Below, in pieces: positions 21,995-55,693 of a stretch of DNA of 61,995 nt (position 1 is its first letter; the number at the start of each line of letters is the position of its first letter). This DNA is from Eubacteriales bacterium (GTDB lineage Bacteria > Bacillota > Clostridia > Oscillospirales > CAG-272), in NCBI GenBank assembly GCA_045631445.1, contig JAZQUS010000045.1, positions 1-61,995 on the forward strand, in the 5' to 3' direction. The notes under the pieces are model-generated. The model worked only from the letters and a program-made list of their open reading frames with translations, had not been told where the DNA came from and did no database searches. Made by a program: the position numbers and the translations under genes.

Positions 21995-22039
21995 AAGAAT
22001 AACCGCAATTTGCCATAAAAACACATTGCGGTTATTCTT
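21995..22039 (-). terminator. Terminator closing the glycan locus
   Basis: 15-bp stem AAGAATAACCGCAAT/ATTGCGGTTATTCTT at the PHP gene stop. Confidence 0.75.
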
Positions 22040-23054
22040 ATTTTATTTCATCTAAAAAATATGCTCTGCTATATGCGACATTTCCATATTCGTCCATCAA
22101 AGTAATTCGAATATACTGGTGTTCAAGCGGTCCGATTTTCTCCATCTCCAAGTGCCACCCAATATCAAACTGAACCTCAGTCAACAAATTTTCTTCATCT
22201 CTCTTAGCAAAAAGATGTCTGTTTTCAGTTGAAAGTCCAACAAATGCAACAGGCGAACATTTCACCGTAACGACTCCATTCTCAATGGAAATTTCGTTAA
22301 TTTCAGGCCCCGTTGAAGCATAAAAATCACCGTTTTTAAGTGCTCTAAAAATATCACTATAGGTCAATTTTTCTGCCCTTATCATTACAAATCCACCAAA
22401 GCAATCACGCAAAAGATGAGCATCATCAGTCGCAAGTGGGAAAATTCTTTCTCCCTTTCTTAACAAATCGTCAAACGGTTGTGCGGTATCAAAATAACCG
22501 TTTCTTGCACACCCTGTGTTGTAAAGCTCTATCCCCCAAAGTCCTTTGAGGTCGGCATAATCAGAATAGTTCTGCAAGGACCACACAGGGTGATTATATG
22601 ACACCAAGCATCCCTCGTCATTCGCCATTTGAATTACTTTATTCACGTCCGAAATATCATAAATTCTCGCGTGTTGTATAGCTTCCTGCTCCTCAGTAAT
22701 AAACTTAAACGAATGCTCAAGCCACATTTTGCTTTTGTCAAAGGTATTGAAGCAGTTTTTGTTCTCATCGGGAGAATAAATATTTAAATGGTAAGTTTTA
22801 GCATAGCAAAAATCACAATCTGTTCGATTATTAGTGCTTATCTCGGTTGATGTCAGAGCAACAAAATGCTCATCAGTAAGTTCGGGATGCGGAACCATAA
22901 CCTCGTGGTCGGTGAAGGCAACTACAGAATATCCTTTTTCCATATAAATTCTTTTTATTTCCTCAGGGCTCATCGCACCATCGGAAAGGTTAGTATGAAC
23001 ATGTAAATTAGCTTTATAAAAGCTACCGACATTTGACAAAAGATATTTTTTCAT
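22038..23054 (-). CDS. PHP-domain metal-dependent phosphoesterase (cytoplasmic)
   Basis: NLHVHT-x2-SDG, FTDHE, NHP, TDDAH motifs; no signal peptide. Confidence 0.88.
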   Translation of the reverse strand: MKKYLLSNVGSFYKANLHVHTNLSDGAMSPEEIKRIYMEKGYSVVAFTDHEVMVPHPELTDEHFVALTSTEISTNNRTDCDFCYAKTYHLNIYSPDENKNCFNTFDKSKMWLEHSFKFITEEQEAIQHARIYDISDVNKVIQMANDEGCLVSYNHPVWSLQNYSDYADLKGLWGIELYNTGCARNGYFDTAQPFDDLLRKGERIFPLATDDAHLLRDCFGGFVMIRAEKLTYSDIFRALKNGDFYASTGPEINEISIENGVVTVKCSPVAFVGLSTENRHLFAKRDEENLLTEVQFDIGWHLEMEKIGPLEHQYIRITLMDEYGNVAYSRAYFLDEIK

Positions 23055-23070
23055 CCCTACACCTCCATAA

Positions 23071-24738
23071 TTATTTACCCAAAATAGCTATCTCGTTAAT
23101 CGCACCGTCATTGGGCAAATTAAAACCAATTTTTACCTTTTCCGCTTTAAAGGTCTTTAAAATTTCCAAATTAAAGCAACTCAAAGGGCGCACAAATTCG
23201 TTTTCATGATTAACATAAAAATCTTCGCAAAATTGTGGATAATAAATAATATTTCCATTGCCAAAGTCAATGTACTCTATTTCTATAATATAAGAATCAT
23301 AGTACGCGCTATTATAAACGATAATGCCTTTGATTTCATAAAAATCATCAAACTCAATTTCAATATACGATTCACCCGCGCCTAAAAGCACCTCGTTATC
23401 CTTAGAATCTAAATTGTAGCAATCAACTACATAATTATCATTAACATTTTGAATGTTTTTAATGTTACTGCCCGTAATTACTGCATCAGTAAGTATATTT
23501 TTATATCCACTTATACTTTCGGGTAAATTGATAACAGAATAAGTAGGTCCATTTACAAAAGGAACACCGTTTTCATCAAAATAAACGTAATCAAATGCAA
23601 AGAAACGAGGAGTATAATCCTTCGAGTTCCAATCTCTGTTTTGATGCGCGTGATATCCAACCATCAACTCGTCACCCGCATAGAAAAAGCAATGATGACC
23701 GGTTCCCGATGCGTAACCTTTCCACTGATTATAAACAAGCGCTTCTTCATCGTTTGTGCCTGGAAATCCCATAAGCAAATTCGTCCATATCTTGCCTTCC
23801 TCATAAGGCTTGACAAAATTACCAAGAGGAGTATCGGAAACCGCGTAGCACACGTTATAATGCTTATTCCAAGCACCGTTTGCTGAGTATGTTAAATAAT
23901 ACTTCCCGTTGCTTTTAATCATAAACGGAGCTTCGTTAATTTGAACCTTGTTGTCGCGATACAATTCCCAAGTAAGTAGCTGCTCCTCACTTTCAGCATT
24001 AACCGTACCGGGTATTACCAACTCTTTATATGTTGACCAGTCTGCCTGATATGGAGAAATAAGTTCAACACCAACAATATGCTGAGTGTTTACTTCAGTT
24101 ATATTCTGTGATGTTTGTGTAACTGTAAAATACATATACATTTTACCATCATCGTCCACAAAAACAGTTGCATCGAGTCCTCTTTTTACATAATCCGCAT
24201 TATGAAACAAGGGATTATTCAAACCGTCAACCTCATCGTTAACCAAGGGTTTGTAAGGTCCTAAAGGATTATCCGCTACAACCACACTGATTCTGCGCTT
24301 CAAATTTATATCCTTTGCACTGTAATACATATAATATACACCGTCAAAGCAATAAATTTCAGGCGCAAAAACCAATGCCTCTTTCCTATCTTCCCAACCT
24401 TCGTATAACACAGGATTATATATCTCCTTGTGCAACTCATAGTTAACAAAATCGGTTGTGACATAGCAATCAACAGCATCGGGATTTCTATCACTTGTGC
24501 CAACAATATAATACGTATCGTTTTCAACGTAAACATGAGGGTCGGGCAACGGAACATCCTTCAAAAGATTCATATGCCATAATGATTTGTTATACTCAAT
24601 AGACTCACCGTCATAGTTTGAAGTAAGGTCAATATAATCCTCATGTTCAATCAAATGATTCTTTTGGGGTGACTCCTCTGGCTTGCAGGAGGTCAAAATC
24701 ATTATGAATACAAAACAAATAATTAATATTCTTCTCAT
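23071..24738 (-). CDS. GH43 glycoside hydrolase lipoprotein with C-terminal beta-sandwich
   Basis: Lipobox LTSC; PDPHV, GLDATVF, INEAPF catalytic motifs; GTGHH. Confidence 0.9.
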   Translation of the reverse strand: MRRILIICFVFIMILTSCKPEESPQKNHLIEHEDYIDLTSNYDGESIEYNKSLWHMNLLKDVPLPDPHVYVENDTYYIVGTSDRNPDAVDCYVTTDFVNYELHKEIYNPVLYEGWEDRKEALVFAPEIYCFDGVYYMYYSAKDINLKRRISVVVADNPLGPYKPLVNDEVDGLNNPLFHNADYVKRGLDATVFVDDDGKMYMYFTVTQTSQNITEVNTQHIVGVELISPYQADWSTYKELVIPGTVNAESEEQLLTWELYRDNKVQINEAPFMIKSNGKYYLTYSANGAWNKHYNVCYAVSDTPLGNFVKPYEEGKIWTNLLMGFPGTNDEEALVYNQWKGYASGTGHHCFFYAGDELMVGYHAHQNRDWNSKDYTPRFFAFDYVYFDENGVPFVNGPTYSVINLPESISGYKNILTDAVITGSNIKNIQNVNDNYVVDCYNLDSKDNEVLLGAGESYIEIEFDDFYEIKGIIVYNSAYYDSYIIEIEYIDFGNGNIIYYPQFCEDFYVNHENEFVRPLSCFNLEILKTFKAEKVKIGFNLPNDGAINEIAILGK

Positions 24739-24739
24739 A

Positions 24740-26473
24740 TTATCTAACTAAAATTTCTCTAACCTTAGCAGGATCAACCTTGAGATTGTGCTCGTTATCC
24801 AAAAGGCCGTTCATTTCCTGCTGAACATCTGTAAGCTGTGTATAGCAGAAGCCTTGGAAGTCACATTCATAAATACCATCAACAAGCTCCTTCAATCTGT
24901 TAAAGAACTCGTCATCATTTTTAGCGGCAGAGTTATATCCCCAGTTATCGTCCTTTTGATCCTTTTCAAACATAATTCCACCAAACTCTGTAAATAATAC
25001 GGGTTGTCCAAGATAAGGATTATCATTTGCAAGAACTCTTCTGAAGCTTTGGAAAGTGTCGTCGTAAGTACTTTCGTTATATCTGCCCTTTAATTCTGCA
25101 CCCAAGCTCGAGTAATCATGAATAGCCAAGATATCACTATCGGACATATTTTCCCAACCGTCGTTTGTGGAAATAAGTCTTGATGGGTCGATTGACTTTG
25201 TTAAATAGTACAAAGAGGAAGCAAAGTTCTGCTGCTCACGATTGTTAAGTATCTTTCTAACACCCCAAGATTCATTAATTGGAACATAAGTGATAATAGA
25301 TGAGAATTTCTTTGCTGTATTAACAATTTCCTGCCATTCCTTAGTAACGTAAGCTACTTCATCGGAATTGAAATTATATGATGATGGCATTTCACACCAA
25401 GTAAGGAGTCCAAGCTCGTCTGCATAGTAATAATAGTATGGATCTTCAAATTTTTGATGCTTTCTTGCACCGTTAAAGCCCATTTCCTTAGTTAACTGAA
25501 CATCTTTTTTGATTTCTTCAATGCTCGGAGCAGTAAGTCCGGAATTCTTCCAATAACCCTGATCCAAAATTAAGCGTTGATAAAGTGGCTTATTATTGAG
25601 CCAAACTCTACCGTCCTGCGTACTAATTTTTCTCATTCCAAATCTCGTATGTACAGTATCAAGAAGGGCACCATCCTTATACAAATTAAAATCAACATAG
25701 AAAAGATTCGGATGCTCAGGGGTCCAATAGGTAATCTCATCAACAAAGTTAAGCTCCATCAAATTTACACTATATCGAGTATACTTTCCGTCAGGAGAGA
25801 ACATTTGACGTTTAACAAGCTTATTATCGTAATAAACCTTAATTTCAATCAAATCCGCAAGCGCATTTCTAAGCTTTATTTCACCACTGAAGGAATTTGT
25901 ATCAATATCGGGAGTGATTGAAAAGTCGTCAATAGAATCCTTGCCAACAAAATCAAGCCAAACGCTCTGCCAAATACCGCTATTAGGAGTATACCAGCAC
26001 GCCCAAGTGCCTTCACCCCAATATTGTTTTCCTCTTGGAATAGTGGGGTCTGCCGGGTCATAGCATTTAACTACGATGGTATTTTCACCCTCTTTAACAA
26101 GTTTTGTAATATCAACAGTAAATGGCGCAAAACCACCTTGGTGTGATGTTGCAAAATATCCGTTTACCCAAACCGTTGTAATATAGTCACTTGCATTAAA
26201 GCCCAAAATAACGTCTTTGTCTAATTTATCATAAACAAAGCTCTTTCTATACCATAAGGTATCGTGGAATGACTTATCACCAATTCCACTTTCAGGATAC
26301 TGATATGTAAAAGGAACGTTAATCTCTTTTGAAAGCTTAACATCACCGTTATGAATTCCTCTCAAATCACCGTCGTGATTATCGTCAAACTCAAATTCCC
26401 AAATTCCGTTCAAGGATAACCACTCATCTCTTCTAAAATGAGGTCTTGGATATTCATTTCTTAATTTCAACAT
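24740..26473 (-). CDS. GH2 glycoside hydrolase (beta-galactosidase/galactofuranosidase-like), cytoplasmic
   Basis: EYPRP, LNGIWEF, LDQGYW, RKHQK, PINESWG, TEFGG, YTQLTDVQQE; AAGGAG RBS before ATG 26473. Confidence 0.9.
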   Translation of the reverse strand: MLKLRNEYPRPHFRRDEWLSLNGIWEFEFDDNHDGDLRGIHNGDVKLSKEINVPFTYQYPESGIGDKSFHDTLWYRKSFVYDKLDKDVILGFNASDYITTVWVNGYFATSHQGGFAPFTVDITKLVKEGENTIVVKCYDPADPTIPRGKQYWGEGTWACWYTPNSGIWQSVWLDFVGKDSIDDFSITPDIDTNSFSGEIKLRNALADLIEIKVYYDNKLVKRQMFSPDGKYTRYSVNLMELNFVDEITYWTPEHPNLFYVDFNLYKDGALLDTVHTRFGMRKISTQDGRVWLNNKPLYQRLILDQGYWKNSGLTAPSIEEIKKDVQLTKEMGFNGARKHQKFEDPYYYYYADELGLLTWCEMPSSYNFNSDEVAYVTKEWQEIVNTAKKFSSIITYVPINESWGVRKILNNREQQNFASSLYYLTKSIDPSRLISTNDGWENMSDSDILAIHDYSSLGAELKGRYNESTYDDTFQSFRRVLANDNPYLGQPVLFTEFGGIMFEKDQKDDNWGYNSAAKNDDEFFNRLKELVDGIYECDFQGFCYTQLTDVQQEMNGLLDNEHNLKVDPAKVREILVR

Positions 26474-26537: not shown

Positions 26538-26599
26538 ATTATAACAAAAATACATATTTTGTCAAGAAGAAGCAAGAAGTTACCAAGCTTCTTCTTGAC
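26538..26599 (-). promoter_or_regulatory. Terminator hairpin whose downstream arm overlaps the -35 of an internal promoter for GH2-GH43-PHP
   Basis: Stem GTCAAGAAGAAGC (26561-73)/GCTTCTTCTTGAC (26587-99); TTGACA(26565-26560)-16bp-TGnTATAAT(-10 at 26543-26538). Confidence 0.65.
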
Positions 26600-26609: not shown

Positions 26610-28253
26610 TTATCTTTCTATACCTGCGTTTTTAAATACCTCTTTGGCATTGTAGTAGTCACTGCTTACACCTGTAACGTATGTATGCAAATTCTTAATA
26701 GCATTTATATCGTTAACTGTCCAAACCTCAAGAGGAATTCCCGCTTCCTTAACCACGTCAACAACGTCTTGAGTAGCCAATGTATACCAAATATCAAAAA
26801 CAACCTGGTTTTGTCCTGTCATCAAATTCATCTGTGCAAACGGAATATTGTTTGCGGCAATTTTAGTTGCGTTAGTGTCTGTAATAACCCAAACAATTCG
26901 CGCAGTAGGACAGTTATGAGCGATTTTTGATAACGCATCACCTGAAAATCCGAGCCACGAAACGTTATCGGTCATACCTGCGTCAGCTACGATCTTAATC
27001 AACGCTTTAGCTTCTTCATCGGTCATATTTCCCTTGATTTCGATATATGGATGAAGTCCCAATTCCTTACACAAGGCAATAAATTCAACAAATGTGGGAA
27101 TTTTTTCGCCCCTGTATGCTGAAAAATCGTTCACTGTATCATTATCATCATAAGAGAAATCGTATTGAGAAACCTCTGCATAGGTCATCTGACTTAACGT
27201 ACCGCTTCCGTTTGACGTTCTGTCAATCGTATCATCGTGAAGCAACACGGGCACACCGTCTTTAGTAAACTGAACGTCACATTCAACGTACTTAAATCCG
27301 TGATTATACGATTCGCGGTAAGCCGCAAGTGTATTTTCAGGAGCTTTGTACCAACCTCTATGACCAACGCTTACCATTGTATCCTTCGTAGCAGCATTAT
27401 TAACAGAACCATTGTTTAAAATATTACCTAAAGCATCCTCTGCCTTAACGCCTTCAATCTTGAACATACTGTGGATATTTGCAAGTTCATCGTTTGTAAG
27501 TTTAAGATTGGGCCTGCCGTTGGCATCAAGCTTACCAACGGTAAGAACAAAATATCCTGTAGCATAAGTCGTTACATAGGTTCTTTCATTGGGATTTGTC
27601 CAAGAAGTATTCCAACCCGTGTCCTTCCACGCACCTGAAGAAGCATTGTCCTTATCCGTGGTTTCCATAACACCCCAACAGTAAACGTTAGTGTCACCAA
27701 GGAATGTAATTTTTGTACCTCGAGCCATTCTCACCTTAACAAGAATTTTCATTCGGGTATTATTATTTACCCAAGGTGAGCCAAACATAGCAGGCTGCTC
27801 TAAAAATTCTTCTTCAGTAAGATATTCAAGATCAGGAGTGTCGGGCTCTTTTTCTTTTATCATAATACCCGTATCAACACTATTGATATGTATATAGCCA
27901 CCAATAACGGTAATTTTAGCAGGAGAGCCATTAAAAAGCTTTGTATTTCTTCCATTAATGTACCAAACACCATTTTTGCTTTCAATAGATGGAGCTTCCT
28001 CGGAATCTCCTCTGATACAACCAATCAAAATCCATTCACCATCTATAAACTGATACAAATTGTATGTATCCTGATCCAAGCACATCTGTCCTTCAAGTAC
28101 ACCTTCTGTATACTGTGGCTCACCAACCTCAATTAACCATCCACCAAGCTTTTCTTTATATATTGTGGTCGTAGTCACTTCGCCGCCATTAGCACAGCCA
28201 ACAATAGGAAGAAGCATCAAAAATGCTAAAATTATTGTTAGTATTTTTTTCAT
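26610..28253 (-). CDS. Glycerophosphodiester phosphodiesterase (GDPD) lipoprotein with N-terminal spacer domains
   Basis: Lipobox IVGC; GHRG, PENTL, VECDV-x2-TKDG-x-PVLLHD, IEIKG, VWTVN. Confidence 0.9.
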   Translation of the reverse strand: MKKILTIILAFLMLLPIVGCANGGEVTTTTIYKEKLGGWLIEVGEPQYTEGVLEGQMCLDQDTYNLYQFIDGEWILIGCIRGDSEEAPSIESKNGVWYINGRNTKLFNGSPAKITVIGGYIHINSVDTGIMIKEKEPDTPDLEYLTEEEFLEQPAMFGSPWVNNNTRMKILVKVRMARGTKITFLGDTNVYCWGVMETTDKDNASSGAWKDTGWNTSWTNPNERTYVTTYATGYFVLTVGKLDANGRPNLKLTNDELANIHSMFKIEGVKAEDALGNILNNGSVNNAATKDTMVSVGHRGWYKAPENTLAAYRESYNHGFKYVECDVQFTKDGVPVLLHDDTIDRTSNGSGTLSQMTYAEVSQYDFSYDDNDTVNDFSAYRGEKIPTFVEFIALCKELGLHPYIEIKGNMTDEEAKALIKIVADAGMTDNVSWLGFSGDALSKIAHNCPTARIVWVITDTNATKIAANNIPFAQMNLMTGQNQVVFDIWYTLATQDVVDVVKEAGIPLEVWTVNDINAIKNLHTYVTGVSSDYYNAKEVFKNAGIER

Positions 28254-28267
28254 AAAAAATTCCTTTC

Positions 28268-28300
28268 AACCCACGGTTCGTTTAAAGCAAACCGTGGGTT
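28268..28300 (-). terminator. Hairpin between the 1312-aa gene and the GDPD gene
   Basis: AACCCACGGTT/AACCGTGGGTT 11-bp stem. Confidence 0.65.
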
Positions 28301-28312
28301 AAAGTACCAGTA

Positions 28313-31300
28313 TTACTGTTGAATTTGACCAATAATATCACCGTATACAGCGCCTATAACTGTTCCGTTATTTGTATTAGTTGTCTTGATTTCATCAAGA
28401 TATGTTGTAACGAAGAGACGTCCAACAATACCGCCAACGTAAACGCTTGAACCAACAATGTCACCGTTGTTTGTATTATTAGTTGCCTTGCCATAGAACA
28501 TACCAACGATACCGCCAAGGTCACCCTGAGCACTAATTGAACCGTTGTTTACACAACCTGTAATTTCACCAAGTGTATCACCTGCGATACCACCAATACC
28601 CCAAGTACCCTTTACACTACCGTTGTTTACACATCCTGTGAGTGTAACTGAACCTGTACCTGTGGAAGCGTTATAGTAGATACCCAAGATACCACCGTTA
28701 CCTGTAGAAGTAGCAGTAATATTACCGTTGTTTACACAGTTTGTAGCAGACGCTGTAGCATCAGTAGCTATAAAACCAATTACACCGCCAAGCGCCCAAG
28801 TACCGTTTACATTACCGTAGTTTACACAACCAACGATGGGCTTATTTGCCTGACCTGCAATACCTGCGGCCTTGCCTCTTGCCTGAATATTACCGTAGTT
28901 ATAGCAATTTTCAATCTTACCTGTGTTCTTTGTTGAACCTGCAATACCACCAACACAGTCACTTGCAGTACTTGTAATGTTACCGTAGTTTACACAATTC
29001 TTAATATCGTGTCCACCAGAACCTGCAATACCCGCGATAATGTAGCTTGAACCTGTAACATTACCGTAGTTTACACAGTTGAGAACTGTAGATGCTTGGT
29101 TTTCTGCATTAGCAACTACACCACCCAGTGTACTTACACCTGTAACGGTCACATAGTTTGTAAGATTTTCAAGAATACCACCATTTGCAACATATCCAAC
29201 GATACCACCAACAGTATCATTTCCGCTTACTTTACCGTAAACACTAAGATTCTTAAGATAACCTTGTTCAATTGTACCAAACAATGACTTGGTATTATTC
29301 AAACCTCTAATTGTGCAGTGGTTACCGTCAAAGAATCCATAGAATCCTTTTCTTGTAGACCAACCAGGAAATTCACCCATATTAAGATTATGACCATTCA
29401 AATCGATACTTTGTGTCAACTTGAAATATTTGCCTGAGAAATTAGCAGACCTTTCGGGTGCCGCATTAACAACACCTGCAATGTAAGCAAGATCTGCACC
29501 GCTTGTTACAAGGAAAGGATCATCAGCAGTACCATTTCCCTGCAAGCTTGTGCTTACTGACTTACCATCCCAAACAGCTACTGTTGAATAGTAAACTGTC
29601 TTGTTAAGATCATCGTAAATCGTGCTAAGGATAAAGTAATCGTATTCTGCAACGTAACCCTCAAGTGCAGGAGAGGTTACTACACACATACCCTTATCGT
29701 TAGACTTTGTAAATGTTGTCATTGATGGCGCTGCATGATTTACAATATATGTTGTTGTAGCATACAAACCAACATTAACTGTAGCAACAGCATTTTCTCC
29801 TGCCCAAAGCTTAATAACAACGTGGAAATTAATTTCTTCAACTGTTACCTTGTCAACGCTATCACTTACACCTGCAAACAATTTAGCGCCTGCAATAGTG
29901 CTTTCGTTTACAGAGGAGTAAACGCCTTCATAATAGTTCCAACCAAGGTCAAGTTTAAGATCACCGTATTTACCCAAAACGAAATCGTTCAAGCTAATTA
30001 CACTTGCAGTTGCACCAAGTTCTGTAGCATCTGCACTATAGAACTTATCTCCATTAAAGAATGTATCAACTGTGCCTGTGCTAGTTGCTACTTCTCTGTA
30101 GTAAACACCCTTGTTATAATATTTTTCAAGCAATTCCTGAAGTGCAAGAGCTATGGGGTCATCTGTAGCAGAAGCAATTCTCTGATAGCCGCACGCACAA
30201 GAGTAAACCATATATCCGTCTGCGTTCAAAACGCCACCGTCGAAAGTATGAGGCTCTACATCATACATATAACCGCAATCACATGCCTTATGATGTGACT
30301 GTTCATTATAAGCATCTTTGAAATCGTGAGGATCAGCATTAAGAGAATCTGTCAAATCAAGAACGAACTGATTGTGCTCCTGATAATGCTTACCCGTATC
30401 AGTAGAAAGCCATTCAACCTTCATCTGAGTTCCGTCCTCAGAGAAGTAAAGCATACACACCATACCAACGCCGCCCTTTTGTGGATCCATCCACTGTGCG
30501 TCGATAACCATCTGATTTACAACGTTTCCGTGATTACCTTCAGTTTGAAGAAGAACTACGTCTTCAAAAGGAGTATGTCCGCACATAATAAGGAAAATAT
30601 TGGGATGCTTTGAAATCAACTTATCCCAAACCTGCTGACCGTTGTTATAACCTCTGTTGTTATTACCAACGTTTGTATCAACGTCGTTCTGTGATCCCAT
30701 ACCGCCACTTGTTGGTACGTTATCATAATCAATACGGTCTTCATTAAATGCCTGATAACCGTGTGTTGTAATAATTACTTTGTGATTAGGATGAGCAAGA
30801 ATAACTTCATTAGCCCATTCAATCATTTCATCACTGACACCGAAGTCCAATGTAATGAACAAGTAATCGGTTTGACCAATAGTCATCAACATATAGGAGT
30901 TTCTAATGTCACCATCAGCAATAAAGCCGTCGAACTGACTCATATATGTTTCGTTTGCAAAATACTTAAGGAAGTATTTTGATTCGTCGTGGTTACCACG
31001 AACCAAGGAGTAAGAAATCTTACCGTCGAGCTTGGAAATGTATTGCTGAGCGCGAATCCATTCCTGCTCCTTGTTAGCTGTATTCCAGTCTTCAGTAATG
31101 TCACCAAGACCGAATACGTGAGCAATTTTCTTTGACTCTTGGTTTGCAAGAATCCAATCGTAAATACCCTCCATCTTTGCAGGAGCATATTTAGAAAGCC
31201 ACTGTGTATCACCAACTACCGCAAAAGAGTATGCATAATCGAAATCTGACTCATAAGAATCAAGCCATTCCTTTGAAATATCAAATCCGTTAGGTGACAA

Positions 31301-32251: not shown

Positions 32252-32298
32252 TTTAAATCCCCTTTCTGGTGATTTTTTAATCTATTTTTGACAATAGA

Positions 32299-34506: not shown

Positions 34507-34539
34507 TATTGTTCACCTCGTTTTTTTATTTTTCATTGG

Positions 34540-34567
34540 GCAAGAAAGGGCAAAAGCCCTTTCTTGC
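34540..34567 (-). terminator. Hairpin after the 1338-aa gene
   Basis: GCAAGAAAGGGC-AAAA-GCCCTTTCTTGC 12-bp perfect stem. Confidence 0.75.
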
Positions 34568-34578
34568 ATATTGATTAA

Positions 34579-38595: not shown

Positions 38596-38661
38596 AGTTT
38601 TTTCTCCTTTTAAACTAAGAATTTATGATTAAAAAATAATCAACTAAATAAATTTTGTGGT

Positions 38662-40938: not shown

Positions 40939-40940
40939 AA

Positions 40941-42728: not shown

Positions 42729-42738
42729 TTTAACCTCC

Positions 42739-44409: not shown

Positions 44410-44437
44410 AATTAAACCTCCAAATTTATCGCAAATC

Positions 44438-48509: not shown

Positions 48510-50144
48510 TTATTTAATTCCTAATTTTAACAAGTTAATAGCTTCCTGTGTTGACTGAGCTGTTGCCAAAAGAGTTTGCTTTGCCTTTTCAACTGTGCAA
48601 CCGTCAACGGACAAAAGCTGCGCCTGAACGTCACCTACAGCAGTTGTAAGACCTGAAATCAAAGTTGTTGCATATCTTGAGCTTTCAAGTGCAATAATTT
48701 CTGCGGGGTCACCCATTGCTGTCAATGTAATGCTCTTTTCTGCAGTTGCTTTATAAGAATCGGACTCATAAACGTTCTTCCAAGCAGGAACGTGACCTGC
48801 CTTACACCAATCTGTAAGGTTGTAGTTACCGTTGTCATCCTTGCCCTGAGTGAGCCATTCTGCAAAAATCAACGCAGCCGCTGCCTTCTGCATGCTTGTT
48901 ATCTTCTTAGTAACTGTAATAACGTGTCCGTTACCGTACCACTTAGAAGCGGTTTCGGAGGGAGCACTTTCGTCTGCCATATAGTAAGGACGAGCTACCG
49001 CATAAGGATTTGCATATACGGGATCTGCCGCATCCTCTTCAGTAACACCAAGCTTGCCTGCTGTTGAAAGCTGCTTGTTGTTCCACCAAATATCGTATGT
49101 ATTAGCAACCATCCAAGGACCTTCAGAGAACATAACCACCTGTCCTGTGGGGAAAGCCGCTTCCTTGTTACCTGCGTCACCGTACAATCTTGAATTGTAA
49201 CGTTCAACCAAATCAGTAACGTACTTTGTAAGACCTGTATTTTGAGCAAATGTAACGTTGTCATTTGCATCTGCAAGTGTACCTCCGTTTACATACAATG
49301 CGGTCAAGTTGTCACTTTCTTGAGAATGGAAGAAAGCGGGATAGAAATTGTCTACCGTTGCCTGAGCCGCAGCATCCAACTTAGGATTGCCATTTTTCAA
49401 CTGATACCAAGAGTGGTCTTGGTCAAGGTTAATATTTCTTACCCAAAGTTCACCAGAATCTGCCAAAGCTCTAAGGCCTTCAAGCAATGTCTGATATTCC
49501 TCATAGTTTTGAGGAACGAAACGTGTATTACCGTCAAATCCAAGACCATTCTTCTTAATAATGTCCTGTCTAATCTGTGTCAAATATCCGTGTGCATCAA
49601 CGGGAATACCGTAGTGCTTACCATCATAAATAGTTGTTTTTTCAATGTTATCATAAGCATTTGCAAAATCAATGCCAACGCCTGTTTTTTCAATTAACTC
49701 ATCAAGGGGATAGAAATAACCCTTAAGAGCATATTCAATATTCTTTTCGTTGTGCATAAAGCAAACGTCGGGGAAATTACCGTAATCATTTGCATATGTA
49801 CTGTCAAGAGCATTGTAATAATCATAGTGACCAACGCTTGTTACCTTAATTTCGATCATGCCTGCGAATTCTTTGTTAAATTCCTTAACCAAAGCAAGCA
49901 AGGTTTCCTGGTCGGGCTGACCGATAACGCTCCACATATTAAGCTGAACGTTTTCAAGAAGAGTAACGTCAAAATTACCCGCTTCATCTCTTGGAAGGTC
50001 ATCAACGATACTATCCGTGTTAGTAGGATCATTCTTGTTTCCGTTATCTTTGCCACCGCAACCAACCAAAACAAACGCCAATGTAGTGCTCATCAATGCA
50101 AGAATCATCAATAAGCTCAAAAATTTCAATACATTTTTTCTCAT
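48510..50144 (-). CDS. Carbohydrate ABC transporter solute-binding lipoprotein (family 1)
   Basis: Lipobox LVGC; PDV, YPLDELI, YGIPVD, GQVVMFSEGPW, AAALIFAEWLT. Confidence 0.88.
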   Translation of the reverse strand: MRKNVLKFLSLLMILALMSTTLAFVLVGCGGKDNGNKNDPTNTDSIVDDLPRDEAGNFDVTLLENVQLNMWSVIGQPDQETLLALVKEFNKEFAGMIEIKVTSVGHYDYYNALDSTYANDYGNFPDVCFMHNEKNIEYALKGYFYPLDELIEKTGVGIDFANAYDNIEKTTIYDGKHYGIPVDAHGYLTQIRQDIIKKNGLGFDGNTRFVPQNYEEYQTLLEGLRALADSGELWVRNINLDQDHSWYQLKNGNPKLDAAAQATVDNFYPAFFHSQESDNLTALYVNGGTLADANDNVTFAQNTGLTKYVTDLVERYNSRLYGDAGNKEAAFPTGQVVMFSEGPWMVANTYDIWWNNKQLSTAGKLGVTEEDAADPVYANPYAVARPYYMADESAPSETASKWYGNGHVITVTKKITSMQKAAAALIFAEWLTQGKDDNGNYNLTDWCKAGHVPAWKNVYESDSYKATAEKSITLTAMGDPAEIIALESSRYATTLISGLTTAVGDVQAQLLSVDGCTVEKAKQTLLATAQSTQEAINLLKLGIK

Positions 50145-50171
50145 AAGAGTTCCCTTTCTATTTTTAGACAA

Positions 50172-51371
50172 TTAATCTCGTTCACCCTCACCAATATAGT
50201 GAACGTCAACTACAACGTCATTAAAAATCAAATTAACTAAATTCTGCCTTCTTACCGTAAACAACGCAAAGGCATTTACTATTCCGCCAAGAATTACAAC
50301 GGCTAAAATCACCATTGCCAATGATATATTACATTCGGTATTCACAGGCGTGAACATAGCCTCATATCCGCCCTCAAATGGTGGAAAAAGATACAAAACG
50401 AACGAAGCCGGAATAAACCCAATGCATTCTATAAGTGTTTTAACAAACGGAACATACCAAGCATTTGCTTCTCCGTCCATTCTTATCACTCCCAAACCGA
50501 GCAATTTATATCCCAAGGTTTTTTCGTCCTTGAACAAATATTTTGGCAAAAGCAAAACAAGAAAACACGCAATAAAAATTGATACTATCAAAGCAATATT
50601 CGTATATCTTGCCTCGGTGCAATATGCTTCCTTATAATCTCTATAATGAGTTGAGAAATACGGCTCACTCTTAAGAACGAGCATCTCTGCCTCCTCAAGC
50701 ATATTTGCATATGCGTTGTAATAAGAGCGATAATACGTCGCGCCTGTCTGTCCAATGCTATCGGAAGAGTCAATAAACAAATAATGGAACAAATAGTAAG
50801 CAACCTGCGTATTCAAAACAGGAATTTCACTATTTTCCTTGTTAAACGAGAACATAAACGTAGCATCGTCGCCAAATGCCTTTTTGTATATCTCAAACAA
50901 ATCATCGTTCACTTCAACTTCAATACTCGGATTATTTTTCAAATATCGTGTGTAAAAATACGCAATATTATCATTTTCCAAAGAATGAACGCCGTTCTTC
51001 ATTACGTCGTGATTTTCATCAAAGACAAAATCGGACTGTTGATTGTTACCAAAAACCTCATATGAAAGGCAAATAGCCCTATAAATGTTTTTAAGCACAA
51101 CAACATCGCTCGTTACTCTCGCACCGTCAACATATTCCACTATGTGAGTTTCCTTTGTTAACTGCTCGTAATAAGCAATCTCATCATTAACCGTTTCCTT
51201 GGCAGCATTGTATGCCGATGTGTTTTGCGTAATTGGAAACAATACTGCAAAAATAACACCGGCAATCAAAGCCACCAACACGAAGTCTATCACCCAACAA
51301 ACAAATCGTTTACTTAACTTTGCGGGTGACGATTTTCTTAATAGTTCTATGTTGGAGTTAAAAATTCTCAC
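50172..51371 (-). CDS. RDD-family membrane protein with large extracytoplasmic insertion
   Basis: KRFVCWVIDF (RDD N-motif), TLGYKLLGLGVI, RRQNLVNLIFNDVVV C-motif; ~250-aa polar insert. Confidence 0.75.
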   Translation of the reverse strand: MRIFNSNIELLRKSSPAKLSKRFVCWVIDFVLVALIAGVIFAVLFPITQNTSAYNAAKETVNDEIAYYEQLTKETHIVEYVDGARVTSDVVVLKNIYRAICLSYEVFGNNQQSDFVFDENHDVMKNGVHSLENDNIAYFYTRYLKNNPSIEVEVNDDLFEIYKKAFGDDATFMFSFNKENSEIPVLNTQVAYYLFHYLFIDSSDSIGQTGATYYRSYYNAYANMLEEAEMLVLKSEPYFSTHYRDYKEAYCTEARYTNIALIVSIFIACFLVLLLPKYLFKDEKTLGYKLLGLGVIRMDGEANAWYVPFVKTLIECIGFIPASFVLYLFPPFEGGYEAMFTPVNTECNISLAMVILAVVILGGIVNAFALFTVRRQNLVNLIFNDVVVDVHYIGEGERD

Positions 51372-51375: not shown

Positions 51376-52473
51376 TTAGTCTTCCAAAAATTCTGTGTAT
51401 ACGGGTTCTGCAGGAATCTTTTTAGCAACCTCCGCAGCATCCTGAGTTGCAAGATAGTTGGAGAATGTTGCGTCGCAGCTAAAGTGATAGAATGCAACGT
51501 TACTTGCAACGGGCTGACCGTTTTCATAAAGAACTTCGAGTTCTGAGCTAAGCTGGAAGGATCCCATATAGTTACCGTTTACGTAAACGTGGAAGTTTGC
51601 ACCGTCACGAGCAACACCAAGCTTGAATGTTGTATCAAATGTAACCTTGCTATCACCTGTGTTCCAAGCGTAGTCGTGATGTCTTGCCAAGGAGTTTGTA
51701 ATACCGGCTTCCCAAGCCCAGTGACCACCGGGAGCTACTTCAGCAACACCAAATTCGTTCCAATAGTTATTGTCTTCGCCTCTAACAAAATTGCCATTTT
51801 CATCATAAGAGTCACCAAGACCGATAGATGCATTCAAGAAGAAAGCAACCATTGTTTCAACACCCGCTTCGTTCTTGTTCTGAGCAACGATACCAATCTT
51901 AGGCCATCTGTCATCCCAGTTTACAGAGTGAAGAGTAATGTCTGTTTCAACATACCACTGAGTTGAATAAATATCAGCAATATAGTAGAAGTTTGTAATA
52001 CCGGAGCTTGTTCTAAAGGAACCTGTTCCCGTAGCGTCATCCCATTCGTTTGTGAAATCGTCTTCAGAAGGAATCATAGACATTTCTCTGTCAATAAATA
52101 CCTTTGATACAACAACGTCAAATGTGCAAGACTTTGTGGGGTCAACCTTTGATGTTACTGTGATAGTTGCAGTACCGGAAGCAACCGCTTCTGCTCTTTT
52201 TGCATTAATCTTAACAATTTCAGGGTTGCTTGAAACGTAGTCACAAGCTCTCTGAGCAGCACTCAATGTTGAAGTGCCCTTAATTTCATAAAAATTCGTC
52301 AACAAAATTGATTCACCAATTTTAAGTGTTGTGGATGATTCAGTCGCAGTCAATGACGCAATAGGACTAGCAGGCTCAGTTTCCTGAGGCGTTGTGCCAC
52401 CGCAAGCAGTTACAACGAGACATAACATGCAAGCCATAAGAATCAACGATACCGTAGTTATTATTTTTTTCAT
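51376..52473 (-). CDS. Lipoprotein with Ig-like (Big_2) domain and aromatic-rich beta-sandwich domain
   Basis: Lipobox VTAC; YVSSNPEIVKI...AVASGTATITVTS; C-terminal FKLGVARDG...VYVNG lectin-like pattern; start uncertain. Confidence 0.7.
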   Translation of the reverse strand: MKKIITTVSLILMACMLCLVVTACGGTTPQETEPASPIASLTATESSTTLKIGESILLTNFYEIKGTSTLSAAQRACDYVSSNPEIVKINAKRAEAVASGTATITVTSKVDPTKSCTFDVVVSKVFIDREMSMIPSEDDFTNEWDDATGTGSFRTSSGITNFYYIADIYSTQWYVETDITLHSVNWDDRWPKIGIVAQNKNEAGVETMVAFFLNASIGLGDSYDENGNFVRGEDNNYWNEFGVAEVAPGGHWAWEAGITNSLARHHDYAWNTGDSKVTFDTTFKLGVARDGANFHVYVNGNYMGSFQLSSELEVLYENGQPVASNVAFYHFSCDATFSNYLATQDAAEVAKKIPAEPVYTEFLED

Positions 52474-52714
52474 AATGATTATGTGATAACCAGTTGTACT
52501 TTTGATTATCAATTCTCCTTTTTTTATTATTTTTGACCGTGAGTACAACACAGTATTTGTCGTATACATTTTAACATATAATAAGGAATGAAAAAACCCT
52601 TTCAATTGCTCACTTGGGTGCAAAATGTTCTCATTTTCGCCTCTTTTTCTCTAATTTGTATAATCCGGCTTTTGATTTTTGTGCAGTTTGAACAATTATT
52701 TGATTTTTGACACA

Positions 52715-52743
52715 TTGACAAAGTAAAAAAAATATGATAATAT
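52715..52743 (+). promoter_or_regulatory. Putative sigma-A promoter of the AraC regulator
   Basis: TTGACA(52715-52720)-17bp-TAATAT with upstream TG. Confidence 0.5.
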
Positions 52744-52775
52744 GTAGTCAAGAAAACATGAAAAGGGGGTAAAAT

Positions 52776-53627
52776 ATGTACATCAGTGCTTGGGGAGAAA
52801 AAATCGTAATTGATAACATTCAAACCAATAGTTATCTCGAACCAATTATGGCAGGAATAACCTATCCTAACCCCTCATATCGAATAATGCACAATATTTC
52901 AAAGGAATTTCCTTATGATGCTTACGTTTTCGAATACGTTGTTAAGGGCACGGGGTATATCGAAACCCCAGAGAAAAAATACACCGTAACCGAGGGCGAT
53001 TTTTACTTTTTGAATAAGTTACGTTATCACATCTATTATGCCGATCCCGATGACCCTTACGAAAAAATCTTTATCGTTTTAAAGGGTAAATTTGTGGACT
53101 TTTTGGTTTCAAATCATCTTTTAAATGATAGCGTATATATCAAAAAATGTAATATGCATAACTATATGATGCACGTTATCAACCTGCTAAACCAAGACGA
53201 TCCAATCAATTATGACCGACTTGCGGTGTGCGTTTTGGAAATTTTTCAATTGGCATTTCCTTCCCCTTATCAAACAGTTCCAAGTACAAGCAAAATTCCT
53301 GAAATGATTAGAAATTACATTGACGTGCATATTTATGAAAAAATTACTCTTGAGGACATTAGCAATAGCTTGTACATAAGCAAATCACATATTGAAAGGG
53401 CTTTCAAAAAGGAATACGGCATAACGCCCCTTGTTTATTGTGCAAATCAAAAAGTCGCGCAGGTCGCCTCAATGCTCGTAACCACCGACTATTCTCTTTC
53501 TCAGATTTCGCAATTAATCGGCTTTTCCGACGTAAAATATATGTCAAAAAGCTTTAAAAAAATAACAGGAAAAACCCCTATGCAATACAAACGAGATGAA
53601 CTCGCAAAAAGCAAAATTGTTAAATAA
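52776..53627 (+). CDS. AraC-family transcriptional regulator (cupin sensor + double HTH)
   Basis: YVVKGTGY...GDFYF...H-x-Y cupin; ITLEDIS...SKSHIERAFKKEYG; ISQLIGFSDVKYMSKSFKKITGKTP. Confidence 0.95.
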   Translation: MYISAWGEKIVIDNIQTNSYLEPIMAGITYPNPSYRIMHNISKEFPYDAYVFEYVVKGTGYIETPEKKYTVTEGDFYFLNKLRYHIYYADPDDPYEKIFIVLKGKFVDFLVSNHLLNDSVYIKKCNMHNYMMHVINLLNQDDPINYDRLAVCVLEIFQLAFPSPYQTVPSTSKIPEMIRNYIDVHIYEKITLEDISNSLYISKSHIERAFKKEYGITPLVYCANQKVAQVASMLVTTDYSLSQISQLIGFSDVKYMSKSFKKITGKTPMQYKRDELAKSKIVK

Positions 53628-53692
53628 TGGTTCAATAACCATCTAAAATAAAATGCAAACGCACTCAAACCGTTTGCGGAAAGGTTTAAATT

Positions 53693-55693
53693 ATGAAAAA
53701 AACAACAATTCTCATTCTACTTCTCGTTATGGTTGCCATCGTGATCGCATCTTGCGGAAACAATAATACGCCAAGCAATACAGCCGTCACAACAGAGCCA
53801 CCCATCACAGATCCCTCTGAAATTATGGAAATCAAACTAATCGGAGCGAAAAAAAGTTTTGATTTCACAGAAGATTTCAGCTATGATAATTTAGTAGTAA
53901 CTTTAGTTATGACAGACGGAACTGAACGTATGTTACCCAAAGATGGCTACACAGTTTCTTGCGCAGATTATAACTCTATGAGAGCAGGTACATATAAAGT
54001 GACAGTAAAAATTAACGGTACAAATTTTGCACAATCCTACGATGTAAAAGTAAACCCTGCCAATAAACTCAAAGTTTTAATGATAGGAAACTCATTTGCA
54101 GATGATACCATTAACTATGCTTATGAGATTGCTAAGAGTGTGGGTATTCCCGCAGAAAACATTCTTATAGCAGATATTTATATCGGTGGTTGCTCACTTG
54201 CAACCCACTGGGAAAACGCACAATCAAACAAACCCGCTTATCGCTTCGGTTTAGAAAAAGAAGGTTGGTTTGACGGTAGTTCCTATACTAACTGGACAAT
54301 GGAACAAGCAATTATGTATGCAGATTGGGATTTTATCACCTTCCAACAAAATAGTGGTAATAGCGGTGGTTCCGCTTCCTATTCTTGCTTGCAGAATTTA
54401 ATGGACTACGTTTATGACGTAGCAACCGACGAGGAAAACAACCCCAACGCAAATCCCAACGTTAAATTCGTATGGCATCAAACTTGGGCATATCAGCAAG
54501 GAACAACTGCAGCCGCATTCGCTAAGCACAATTATGATCAAATGACTATGTACAATGACATTATGTCATGTATGAAAGAACACGTTTTGAACAAGAACTT
54601 CGTTGCTATTATTCCTAACGGAACTGCAATTCAAAATGCAAGAACATCAACTATTGGCGACACATTCAGCCGAGACCAACATAACCACTTAAGCTACGGT
54701 GCAGGAAGATATATTGCTTCTATGAACCTTGTAAGCGTACTTACAGGTAGAGATATGTCTACTTTAACTTGGAAGCCCACGGATAGTGGATTCAATTACT
54801 CTTTGACCGAAACCGAAATCAATATTTGCAAAGAAAGCGTTGCCAATGCAATTGCAAATCCATTTGAAATAACAAAATCCAAATATCCCCCTGCCCCCAC
54901 AGACCTTTCTGAAATGTTTGAGGGCGAAGGAACAGAACAAAACCCCTACCTTATTCAAAATGCAGAAGATTTGTGGGCACTTTCCAACTTTACAAAGGGA
55001 AAGAATTTCGAAGATAGAAATACATATTTCAAGCTTACCGCGGATATCGATGTAAGTGCAGAAAATTGGAATCCCATTTGCTCCTCTGCAGAAAGCGGTT
55101 GGGTAAGCGTAAAGAACGGAAACGTAAATAGTTTCAACGGCAACTTTGACGGCAATGGAAAGACCATTACATTTATTGGAAAATATACTGGAGACACTTG
55201 GGCAAAAGGACTTTTCGGATGTATCGGTGGATATGTTCACGATTTGACACTTCGTGGCTCAATCACAACCGAAAAAGGTAAGGTTGGTTCACTTGCGGCT
55301 ATGGCAATAACAGGTGCTAAAATTGAAAACATTACCTCCTATGTTGATATCTCCGCGCAAAATAACCAAGTTGGTGGTATAATAGGATATATCGAGTCAG
55401 ATGGTGTAGTTATCGAAAATTGCCAGAATTACGGAACAATTTCAGCTCGCGAACTAGTTGGCGGCATTCTTGGCGGTGGATATAAGAACACGGTATTTAC
55501 AAATTGCGAAAATCATGGTAATGTAACAGCAACTTCTGCACGTGCAGGTGGTATTACAGGTGAAAAATATGCTTCAATGACTGTTACCAACTGTGTAAAC
55601 ACAGGGACAATTAGCGCTGGCGGAGTTGTAGCAACCTCCAATTCAGGATCCACAAGTAACTATGCAGGTTACCTCTTTGGCGAAGAAAAATAA
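53693..55693 (+). CDS. Lipoprotein: bacterial Ig-like domain + DUF4886-like SGNH hydrolase + GLUG module
   Basis: Lipobox IASC; MIGNSF, IGGCSL, WDFITFQQ, HQTWAY, RDQHNHL; GEGTEQNPYLIQNAEDL and VGGIIG/CxNYG repeats. Confidence 0.8.
   Translation: MKKTTILILLLVMVAIVIASCGNNNTPSNTAVTTEPPITDPSEIMEIKLIGAKKSFDFTEDFSYDNLVVTLVMTDGTERMLPKDGYTVSCADYNSMRAGTYKVTVKINGTNFAQSYDVKVNPANKLKVLMIGNSFADDTINYAYEIAKSVGIPAENILIADIYIGGCSLATHWENAQSNKPAYRFGLEKEGWFDGSSYTNWTMEQAIMYADWDFITFQQNSGNSGGSASYSCLQNLMDYVYDVATDEENNPNANPNVKFVWHQTWAYQQGTTAAAFAKHNYDQMTMYNDIMSCMKEHVLNKNFVAIIPNGTAIQNARTSTIGDTFSRDQHNHLSYGAGRYIASMNLVSVLTGRDMSTLTWKPTDSGFNYSLTETEINICKESVANAIANPFEITKSKYPPAPTDLSEMFEGEGTEQNPYLIQNAEDLWALSNFTKGKNFEDRNTYFKLTADIDVSAENWNPICSSAESGWVSVKNGNVNSFNGNFDGNGKTITFIGKYTGDTWAKGLFGCIGGYVHDLTLRGSITTEKGKVGSLAAMAITGAKIENITSYVDISAQNNQVGGIIGYIESDGVVIENCQNYGTISARELVGGILGGGYKNTVFTNCENHGNVTATSARAGGITGEKYASMTVTNCVNTGTISAGGVVATSNSGSTSNYAGYLFGEEK

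Follow-up and report, generated by a model that had tools for sequence, protein, structure and literature searches.

A Gram-positive polysaccharide utilization locus with a predicted phosphodiester-decorated galactofuranose glycan as its target

Introduction

Gram-positive polysaccharide utilization loci (gpPULs) of gut Firmicutes, reportedly described by Sheridan et al. in 2016, bring together glycoside hydrolases (GHs), an ATP-binding cassette (ABC) importer with a lipoprotein as its solute-binding protein (SBP), and a regulator; the glycan is cut at the surface and finished by exo-enzymes in the cytoplasm. Here we describe a 33.6-kb locus of this plan in a 61,995-nucleotide stretch of DNA (the window), contig C45 (JAZQUS010000045.1) of an Eubacteriales metagenome-assembled genome (MAG; 1.77 Mb, 95% complete). 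It differs from the usual gpPUL in its enzymes, which include phosphoesterases of three folds, three esterases of SGNH type and GH2 and GH43 enzymes of furanosidase type, in its ten lipoproteins, which include Cys-repeat/GLUG giants, and in a predicted substrate that is microbial rather than dietary.

The locus is very probably a gpPUL: two GH43 enzymes, a GH2, a GH3, an importer of SBP, permeases and ATPase, and an AraC-type regulator lie within 33.6 kb, and Pfam scans found no TonB-dependent transporter (SusC) or SusD-like family among its 18 proteins. That the target contains galactofuranose (Galf) we consider likely. With moderate confidence we read the whole as a gpPUL for an O-acylated, phosphodiester-decorated microbial beta-galactofuranose glycan, carried by uncultured Christensenellales-like Clostridia of the ruminant hindgut, the phosphodiester-linked substituent probably being glycerophosphate.

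Bacteroidota loci for wall glycans resemble the window in concept only. Dysgonomonas gadei uses mycobacterial arabinogalactan, and Bacteroides thetaiotaomicron uses yeast mannan with the help of a sugar-phosphate phosphatase; there, too, another microbe's wall polymer is met by Galf-active or phosphate-removing enzymes together with GHs. Whereas those loci rely on SusC/D, the window has an ABC importer and lipoproteins, and both the phylum and the enzyme families differ. To our knowledge, the trio of GDPD, LamG-metallophosphoesterase (LamG-MPE) and PHP is undescribed in those Bacteroidota loci. Full-text literature searches turned up no report of a locus with this combination of families, nor of one through which gut Firmicutes use galactofuranan or teichoic acid. 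Galf is absent from mammals and plants, whereas many surface glycans of bacteria, fungi and protozoa contain it; we know of little on the gut recycling of such microbial "necromass" beyond a few Bacteroidota systems.

Organization of the locus

Families were assigned to the locus proteins by Pfam and NCBIfam profile scans. Sixteen minus-strand open reading frames (ORFs) occupy positions 22038-52623 with short gaps or small overlaps, and on the plus strand an AraC-type regulator is followed by one further lipoprotein. A lipobox regular expression picks out exactly ten lipoproteins (the Big_2 protein, SBP, GH43a, SASA1, the Cys-repeat/GLUG protein, SASA2, LamG-MPE, GDPD, GH43b and the DUF4886 protein); GH2, GH3 and PHP carry no signal peptide. 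The genes are as follows.

51376..52623, minus strand: Big_2 surface lipoprotein, operon gene 1 (Big_2 21.6 bits, just below cut-off; lipobox VTAC)
50172..51371, minus strand: RDD-family multi-pass membrane protein (Pfam RDD 31.7 bits)
48510..50171, minus strand: putative divergent solute-binding lipoprotein (SBP) of the ABC importer (lipobox LVGC; position; weak BLASTP)
47425..48492 and 46493..47443, minus strand: two CUT1-type ABC permeases (Pfam BPD_transp_1)
44438..46480, minus strand: MalK/UgpC-like ABC ATPase, 680 aa, with large insertions (Pfam ABC_tran and OB_MalK)
42739..44463, minus strand: GH43a surface lipoprotein (Pfam GH43 110 bits; lipobox LSGC)
40941..42749, minus strand: SASA1, predicted surface SGNH-type O-acylesterase (Pfam SASA 62.6 bits; lipobox LVSC)
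38662..40938, minus strand: GH3, predicted cytoplasmic beta-glucosidase-like exo-glycosidase (Pfam GH3 N, C and Fn3-like)
34579..38595, minus strand: Cys-repeat/GLUG lipoprotein, 1338 aa (lipobox FTAC)
32299..34506, minus strand: SASA2, predicted surface SGNH-type O-acylesterase, with Big_2 (Pfam SASA 64.9 bits; lipobox LASC)
28313..32251, minus strand: LamG-MPE lipoprotein, 1312 aa (Laminin_G_3 66 bits; Metallophos 27.6 bits)
26610..28253, minus strand: GDPD surface lipoprotein (Pfam GDPD 125 bits; lipobox IVGC)
24740..26473, minus strand: GH2 of group III (GH2_19-like), cytoplasmic, predicted exo-beta-D-galactofuranosidase (Pfam N, Ig and TIM; PDB relatives)
23071..24738, minus strand: GH43b surface lipoprotein (Pfam GH43 117 bits; lipobox LTSC)
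22038..23054, minus strand: PHP-family two-domain metal-dependent phosphoesterase, cytoplasmic, last operon gene (Pfam PHP 29.9 bits)
52776..53627, plus strand: divergent AraC-family regulator (Pfam HTH_18, HTH_AraC and AraC_binding)
53693..55693, plus strand: DUF4886 (SGNH-like) lipoprotein with Big_3 and a GLUG-like tail (DUF4886 217 bits; lipobox IASC)

A sequence-only reading of the window had proposed 16 co-oriented genes with a divergent AraC and one more lipoprotein, and all 18 genes lie where it placed them. Its ten lipobox proteins agree with the regular-expression count, its two surface GH43s and cytoplasmic GH2 and GH3 with the Pfam matches and the lipobox/signal-peptide pattern, and its three SGNH-type esterases (two SASA-like, one DUF4886-like) with Pfam scores of 63, 65 and 217 bits. 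The three phospho(di)esterase folds that it named were recovered, GDPD by Pfam and MPE and PHP by Pfam, AlphaFold2 and Foldseek, as was the sugar ABC importer, its permeases and ATPase by Pfam and its SBP, which has no Pfam match, from position and weak BLASTP similarity. The proposed stripping at the surface and finishing in the cytoplasm fits the ten lipoboxes and the signal-less GH2, GH3 and PHP.

GH2 points to galactofuranose

The closest PDB structures of GH2 are 7XYR (323 bits, 3e-95), 7SF2 (258 bits, 2e-75) and 9J6M/9J6N (205 bits, 3e-59), whereas ordinary beta-glucuronidases and beta-galactosidases match at 4e-20 or weaker. The gene's true start is 26473, the mechanical ORF extending to 26575. 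Of these structures, 7XYR is an uncharacterised GH2_19 and 9J6M a GH2_18, and furanosidase activities within GH2 are specific to group III (PMC12243196). By its sequence, GH2 is a group III (GH2_18/GH2_19) member of furanosidase type. Secretion is uncommon in GH2_19, at less than 10% of its members (PMC12243196), which fits a cytoplasmic GH2.

In ORF1110, a Galf-ase from Streptomyces, the contacts to a Galf mimic are N463 to O2, H401 and K212 to O3, Y551 and E594 to O5, and K212, Y228 and E594 to O6, with E464 and E530 catalytic (PMC11627007). These residues were mapped onto GH2 by a HMMER alignment (chain index + 23 = ORF1110 numbering, checked on the NE motif). GH2 is identical at the equivalents of K212, Y228, H401, N463, E464, E530 and E594; its INESWG motif aligns to N463/E464 (the NE acid/base) and its FTEFGG motif to the E530 nucleophile. 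ORF1110 (GH2_18; 9J6M/9J6N; Streptomyces sp. JHA19), GH2_19 and the window GH2 thus share group III and a three-domain core, and ORF1110 and GH2 also have in common the NE motif, the nucleophile and, apart from Y551, the residues forming hydrogen bonds to O2, O3, O5 and O6 of the mimic. Like most of GH2_19, GH2 lacks a signal peptide, and it is nearer to the uncharacterised 7XYR than to ORF1110; unlike ORF1110, it has no CBM42/AbfB domain and is cytoplasmic, not secreted. The alignment supports Galf recognition without proving it; GH2 is most likely a beta-D-galactofuranosidase.

The genome holds the means to use the galactose that such an enzyme would free. A galK gene is present in 16/16 genus genomes searched (the window's own genome and 15 congeners), galE and galM lie on contig C36, and the genome's only copy of galT adjoins the locus, convergent with the DUF4886 gene, just outside it as the sequence-only reading had noted.

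55745..57241, minus strand: galT, UDP-glucose--hexose-1-phosphate uridylyltransferase (NCBIfam NF003629 745 bits, cut-off 628)

In three congeners (G020, G002 and G012), galT directly follows PHP on the same strand. In the cultured strain Anaerocaecibacter muris CLA-AA-M11 (L069:4129-11743), galT, galK, galE and a galM-like gene are directly followed by a GH2 orthologue (53% identity), with no other glycosidase in this neighborhood, and a galT-like gene adjoins GH2 in three further loci. The simplest reading is that GH2 releases galactose. As the enzyme belongs to the furanosidase group III, this galactose would be galactofuranose. The A. muris strain is a cultured organism in which Galf-ase function could be tested.

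GH43, GH3 and the esterases

The two GH43 proteins are paralogues, ~55% identical, and both carry, by eye, the motifs DPHVY, LD(I/A)T(I/V)F and EAP; in GH43a the catalytic Asp/Asp/Glu residues lie in ADPHVY, LDITIF and EAPY, and a C-terminal domain of ~150 aa has no assignment. GH43a is predicted from sequence to act extracellularly, cutting a furanosidic backbone or its side chains. Galf-active subfamilies of GH43 are GH43_3, 8, 30, 31, 32, 34 and 37. The nearest PDB structure is 4QQS (83 bits), with 3KST also among the nearest, while 3QZ4 (GH43_34) scores 24 bits only and 6EUG (the GH43_24 exo-beta-1,3-galactanase) is weakly similar (38 bits); the last two scores exclude the GH43s as close kin of GH43_34 or GH43_24. 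The proposal of Galf-type GH2 and GH43 enzymes therefore stands in part: GH2 falls in group III with its ligand residues kept, but the GH43s stand at a distance from GH43_34, which among Galf-ase subfamilies is known best.

GH3 matches the beta-glucosidases 5WAB (391 bits) and 7MS2 (377 bits). The nucleophile block of the SASA/CE6-like proteins (PF03629) reads GQSG in SASA1 and GQSN in SASA2; both have C-terminal domains with no family assignment, SASA2 also carrying Big_2, and a PDB sequence search found no relative of the SASA2 catalytic domain. The DUF4886 protein matches 4I8I, a hypothetical protein (E = 7e-36).

Two linked surface phosphoesterases and a cytoplasmic PHP protein

The GDPD domain (PF03009, 125 bits) spans profile positions 1-241 of 244 and has the motifs GHRG, ECD and LLHDD (HR..E.D..HD). 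It matches 27 GDPDs in the PDB, with a sole full-domain match to 5T91 (E = 1.2e-14), which we take to be Bacillus subtilis GlpQ. GlpQ of B. subtilis is exo-lytic on wall teichoic acid. The window protein shares with it the GDPD domain and an extracytoplasmic place, and glycerophosphate on an envelope polymer is a plausible substrate. Unlike GlpQ, it is a lipoprotein with an N-terminal region of ~270 aa that has no assignment, it stands in a glycan-utilization operon and not in the Pho regulon, in five congeners it forms a fusion with LamG-MPE, and it has no PhoD partner: Pfam scans of the locus proteins found no PhoD family, Pho-type regulator or phosphate transporter. The locus thus differs from the Pho-regulated GlpQ and PhoD teichoic-acid system of Bacillus, having GDPD in common with it and AraC as its regulator.

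LamG-MPE consists of a LamG lectin-like domain, a calcineurin-like metallophosphoesterase of a DxQ variant and a GLUG-like tail. The Metallophos domain (PF00149) scores 27.6 bits against a cut-off of 21.5. Among 20 homologues D28/Q30, G63-D64, G99-N100-H101, H177 and G238-H239 are invariant, so that motif I reads D-T-Q, with an invariant Gln in place of the canonical D-x-H, and the four other metal motifs are invariant. An AlphaFold2 model (predicted local distance difference test [pLDDT] 75.7, predicted TM-score [pTM] 0.83) retrieved Lmo2642, purple acid phosphatases, GpdQ, Rv0805 and ADPRM with Foldseek (TM ~0.5). PHP (PF02811) scores 29.9 bits against a cut-off of 26.4, has an N-terminal HxH metal motif in NLHVHT and was modeled with a pLDDT of 91; its Foldseek matches are 3E38 (BVU_3505, a two-domain PHP), 2ANU (TM0559), RNase AM and 2YB1 (Cv1693). 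The models confirm a calcineurin-like fold for MPE and a PHP fold for PHP and, with the invariant metal ligands of MPE, both enzymes look active. Sequence searches of the PDB with LamG-MPE and PHP gave nothing useful, and a profile built from the 20 MPE homologues found nothing there below E = 0.05.

In five species, LamG-MPE-GLUG and the GDPD catalytic domain form one open frame of 1616-1704 codons (congeneric MAG contigs L034 5013-9863, L035 4768-9852, L036 3230-8290, L037 4744-9858 and L038 4770-9848), which has lost the N-terminal ~270 aa present in stand-alone GDPD. Such a Rosetta-stone fusion argues for a common substrate of both surface phosphoesterases. On an unrelated metagenomic contig (L109), a PHP (58%), an AraC (45%) and a LamG-MPE (37% over 608 residues) occur together with an SBP, permeases and GH43, and in another genome (G170) a PHP (37%) adjoins LamG-MPE. 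LamG is N-terminal to the MPE domain in every homologue examined, and the module occurs in 17/301 genomes sampled across the order.

Two further arrangements of MPE genes were seen. L037 and L038 each carry LamG-MPE in tandem, as two copies. In L033, L035 and L039, the region downstream of the locus holds a divergent MPE paralogue, 35% identical, in which 27 residues are inserted after motif I.

A widespread core and a genus-specific insertion

The closest public relatives of the window are MAGs of uncultured Clostridia/Eubacteriales, recovered from the colon of yak, the rectum and colon of sheep and the caecum of roe deer, and from Tibetan sheep. Sequencing runs containing window DNA are bovine and other gut metagenomes. 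More distant GH2 relatives occur in Christensenellaceae, Candidatus Gallimonas and A. muris. Anchored on GH2, 80 loci were collected from 185,579 species genomes, 15 with GH2 identity of at least 76% and 65 at 40-68%. Eight congeneric genomes show synteny across the entire locus (60-98% protein identity), and LamG-MPE is present in all 15 congeneric loci, most of which also have GDPD, PHP, GH43b and SASA2 as far as their contigs reach. With the five-species fusion and the L109 combination, this upholds the claim that the phosphoesterases belong to the system. The locus is accessory within the genus: (near-)full-length GDPD orthologues were found in 10/23 genomes, and several 95-99% complete MAGs lack the locus.

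In the 65 loci from outside the genus, the core that persists consists of an SBP, two permeases, a long ATPase, one or more GH43 lipoproteins and GH2. Their census counts GH43 lipoproteins in 22, a 1142-aa GDSL esterase in nine, GH36 alpha-galactosidase, GH78 rhamnosidase and GH3 in five each and galT in four, a galactose/rhamnose/acyl signature that is typical of bacterial surface polysaccharides. Locus L041 is a bare core in the window's order (Big_2 lipoprotein, SBP, permeases, ATPase, GH43a, GH2, GH43b and a DUF4886-like gene) with identities of 53-87% to the window (72% for the Big_2 protein). Compared with this core, the window has six genes (SASA1, GH3, the Cys-repeat/GLUG protein, SASA2, LamG-MPE and GDPD; 26610-42749) inserted between GH43a and GH2, and RDD and PHP are also extra. 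Core loci of Christensenellales (L041, L043, L056 and C53 of the window's own genome) thus share their gene order with the window, whereas phosphoesterases are absent from them.

The C53 locus (850-24086) is a second, paralogous furanoside locus of core architecture. Its genes encode an AraC, a lipoprotein of 1513 aa, a Cys-repeat lipoprotein of 726 aa with 53% identity to the window protein's repeats, a regulator of MarR/ArsR type, an SBP, two permeases, a lipoprotein of 1257 aa, two GH43 lipoproteins of ~820 aa and a group III GH2 paralogue (39%). In one congener (L029:12987-19608; JAZRRX010000039), the locus lacks GH43b and GDPD, and after PHP come a recombinase-like ORF and then nagA-like, N-acetylhexosamine-kinase-like, 458-aa and galE genes; the nagA-like and 458-aa genes have counterparts 92-94% identical on contig C67 of the window genome.

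Alternative explanations

Several observations count against a phosphodiester-decorated galactofuranan as the target, and they are given here with the other explanations that were considered. The first of these is a mosaic of independent modules, in which a galactofuranan core PUL has come to lie beside a surface module, with its own esterases, for phosphate scavenging or for teichoic-acid or phospholipid head groups (GDPD, MPE and PHP). Outside the genus, GDPD occurs in 3/65 loci and MPE or PHP in none, so that the expected co-occurrence of phosphoesterases and GHs in homologous loci held within the genus and failed beyond it; L041 and 62 of the 65 distant loci have the core with no phosphoesterase, and the same genome has its core-only paralogous locus on contig C53. 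Across the order, LamG-MPE homologues lie in mostly unrelated, heterogeneous contexts, with one PHP and one GH3 as neighbors. Consensus scans also found terminator-like and promoter-like signals that split the cluster, including a hairpin between the Cys-repeat/GLUG and SASA2 genes and the following features.

28265..28303, minus strand: terminator-like hairpin, 16 bp, between the LamG-MPE and GDPD genes, a possible internal terminator or attenuator
26538..26565, minus strand: sigma-70-like promoter, 12/12 with extended -10, upstream of the GH2 start, a possible promoter for GH2-GH43b-PHP
55702..55746, both strands: terminator-like hairpin, bidirectional (19-20 pairs on either strand), separating galT from the DUF4886 gene

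These are pattern matches only, from which the cluster may be read as several transcription units. Against a mosaic, the block sits within the operon, flanked by GH43a and GH2, all on one strand and with short gaps, its order is conserved in 15 species (60-94% protein identity), and PHP is the last gene, after GH43b. PHP, LamG-MPE, AraC, the ABC importer and GH43 meet again on the independent contig L109, and the cluster has neither a Pho-type regulator nor a phosphate transporter. Independent modules are on this evidence unlikely; given the rarity of phosphoesterases outside the genus, we instead regard the phospho/acyl-stripping module as a lineage-specific upgrade of a widespread furanoside core.

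A plant glycan (arabinan, type II arabinogalactan or pectic side chains) would make the GH43 and GH2 enzymes alpha-L-arabinofuranosidases or arabinanases and the SASA proteins CE6-like acetyl esterases, with the phosphoesterases incidental. The host animals eat plant fibre, and GH43 is the classic arabinofuranosidase, arabinanase and xylosidase family; its nearest structure here, 4QQS, is HoAraf43, with weak arabinofuranosidase activity on p-nitrophenyl-arabinofuranoside. Group III of GH2 also includes alpha-L-arabinofuranosidases (PMC12243196). In the ORF1110 alignment, the Y551 equivalent of GH2 lies two positions off a Tyr in a gapped stretch, and the Glu that binds O5 and O6 is also kept in uncharacterised group III structures and is non-discriminating alone, so the residue match supports Galf recognition without proving it. 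GH78 and esterases lie near the core in other taxa, and the best NCBIfam match of GH3 is an L-arabinopyranosidase model, although its score is far under the cut-off (509 versus 1300 bits).

L-Arabinose isomerase (AraA, PF02610) speaks against this alternative, being absent from all 16 genus genomes searched, while the controls (Escherichia coli, B. subtilis, B. thetaiotaomicron, Thermotoga and Lactococcus) were detected. So do the physical linkage of Leloir genes to GH2 in several lineages, the conserved O6-binding residues, the weak similarity of the GH43s to the GH43_24 structure 6EUG, and three conserved phosphoesterases, two of them surface-located and fused in five species, that have no role on plant wall polymers. 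We judge a plant target improbable. The earlier view that this is a galactofuranose rather than a plant-fibre locus finds support in the group III GH2, its retained Galf O5/O6 residues, the missing AraA, the Leloir genes and the galT linkage.

A third alternative is self-turnover, in which the locus remodels or recycles the organism's own Galf-containing wall or teichoic-acid-like polymer. Its genome has glf, for UDP-galactopyranose mutase, on contig C82 and so probably makes Galf glycans itself; the many surface-anchored hydrolases could act on their own envelope, and in Bacillus the GDPD-type GlpQ helps to turn over the teichoic acid that the cell itself has made. However, glf was not found in six locus-bearing congeners searched (G002, G003, G004, G006, G009 and G012) and is present in two that have no locus (G001 and G007). 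Because glf does not track the locus, self-turnover was down-weighted, and we consider it very unlikely. The AraC regulator, the SBP-dependent importer, the cytoplasmic exo-glycosidases and galT have the architecture of nutrient acquisition, and together with the accessory status of the locus and the distribution of glf they favor an exogenous nutrient. As a side observation, glf lies in the region C82:7031-10981, ~1.5 kb from a GH3-like gene.

Two more points temper the galactofuranan reading. The Foldseek matches of MPE and PHP hold at fold or superfamily level only. One bovine-gut RNA run yielded a few contigs of 160-320 nt, 95-99% identical to the MPE, SASA2, Cys-repeat/GLUG and GH2 regions; being fragmentary and open to DNA carry-over, they are weak evidence of expression.

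Proposed pathway and candidate polymers

In the proposed mechanism, the divergent AraC-type regulator would switch the operon on. Judging from enzyme families, the two SASA proteins and the DUF4886 esterase would take off O-acyl groups at the surface, GDPD and the LamG-guided MPE would remove or cut phosphodiester-linked groups, and the two GH43s would cleave the furanosidic polymer to oligosaccharides, with the Big_2 and Cys-repeat/GLUG proteins serving in binding or as scaffolds. The divergent SBP, two permeases and MalK-like ATPase would then import the oligosaccharides. In the cytoplasm, GH2 would free galactofuranose, GH3 would remove beta-linked glucose or a similar residue, PHP would remove residual phosphate, and galactose would enter the Leloir pathway via GalK, GalT and GalE. 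Evolutionarily, a widespread core (Big_2 lipoprotein, SBP, two permeases, ATPase, GH43, GH2 and GH43) would have been extended in the genus by the six-gene block together with RDD and PHP.

The polymer should accordingly offer beta-Galf, phosphodiester groups removable by GDPD, O-acyl groups and something for the beta-glucosidase-like GH3. A natural polymer that would match is made by Bifidobacterium bifidum, which produces phospho-glycero-beta-galactofuranan (PGbetaG) as well as beta-1,6-glucan and beta-galactofuranan (PMC10700415, PMC8551831). Phospho-polysaccharides of lactococci and streptococci and Galf glycoconjugates of fungi or protozoa would fit too, and the probability of any one specific polymer is low. 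A more daring suggestion, which we regard as doubtful, is that a lipoteichoic-acid-like phospho-glycero-galactofuranan, such as the bifidobacterial lipoglycan PGbetaG, would here have the first catabolic system dedicated to it, with the LamG-linked DxQ MPE, in some species fused to GDPD, as a new family of glycan-directed phosphodiesterases.

Were the overall reading true, the locus would represent a lipoprotein-based pathway in a Firmicute for a phosphodiester-decorated galactofuranan, and an example of a simple core PUL upgraded by an inserted "decoration-stripping" module. It would give a testable function to the large, mostly uncharacterised GH2_19 subfamily and to the unstudied LamG-metallophosphoesterase family, and would supply candidate enzymes with which to strip immunologically active polymers of lipoteichoic-acid type of their glycerophosphate and acyl groups. 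Were PGbetaG the substrate, a gut Firmicute would be feeding on the envelopes of neighboring Gram-positive bacteria.

Importer, accessory lipoproteins and neighbors

The SBP gene is directly upstream of the permease genes. Its product has no Pfam match even in a relaxed scan; by BLASTP it resembles weakly (27% identity, E = 8e-8) a protein of the related locus L055 that Pfam verifies as SBP_bac_8. The permeases are 91-98% identical in congeners. Against the NCBIfam UgpC subfamily the ATPase scores 414 bits, below the cut-off. At 680 aa it is about twice the usual MalK, and its orthologues have 769 aa (L041) and 545-572 aa (L043 and L056), which makes the extension a trait of the transporter family. 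AraC keeps its position in congeners, with 75-95% identity, and the RDD gene is likewise conserved there and is absent from the core-only locus L041. At the end of the locus away from galT, the neighbor is ychF.

20713..21807: ychF (Pfam)

The Big_2 protein, whose likely true start is M51 at 52473, has a C-terminal domain of ~245 aa with no Pfam match and is, from its sequence, a candidate glycan-binding protein. The Cys-repeat/GLUG lipoprotein is a candidate binding or scaffold protein: it combines Cys/His-rich repeats with two GLUG-like beta-helical modules, has no Pfam match over threshold, and its GLUG-like tail is 47-51% identical to that of LamG-MPE. A relaxed Pfam scan (E up to 1) of the unassigned parts of the Big_2, SASA1/2, GDPD, GH43a, SBP and Cys-repeat/GLUG proteins gave only sub-threshold GLUG and MucBP matches. 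In all, four copies of the GLUG-like module, ~330-350 residues long and mutually 29-51% identical, are spread over three lipoproteins (28316-29701, 34582-36939 and 54905-55660), one in LamG-MPE, two in the Cys-repeat protein and a more divergent one in the DUF4886 protein.

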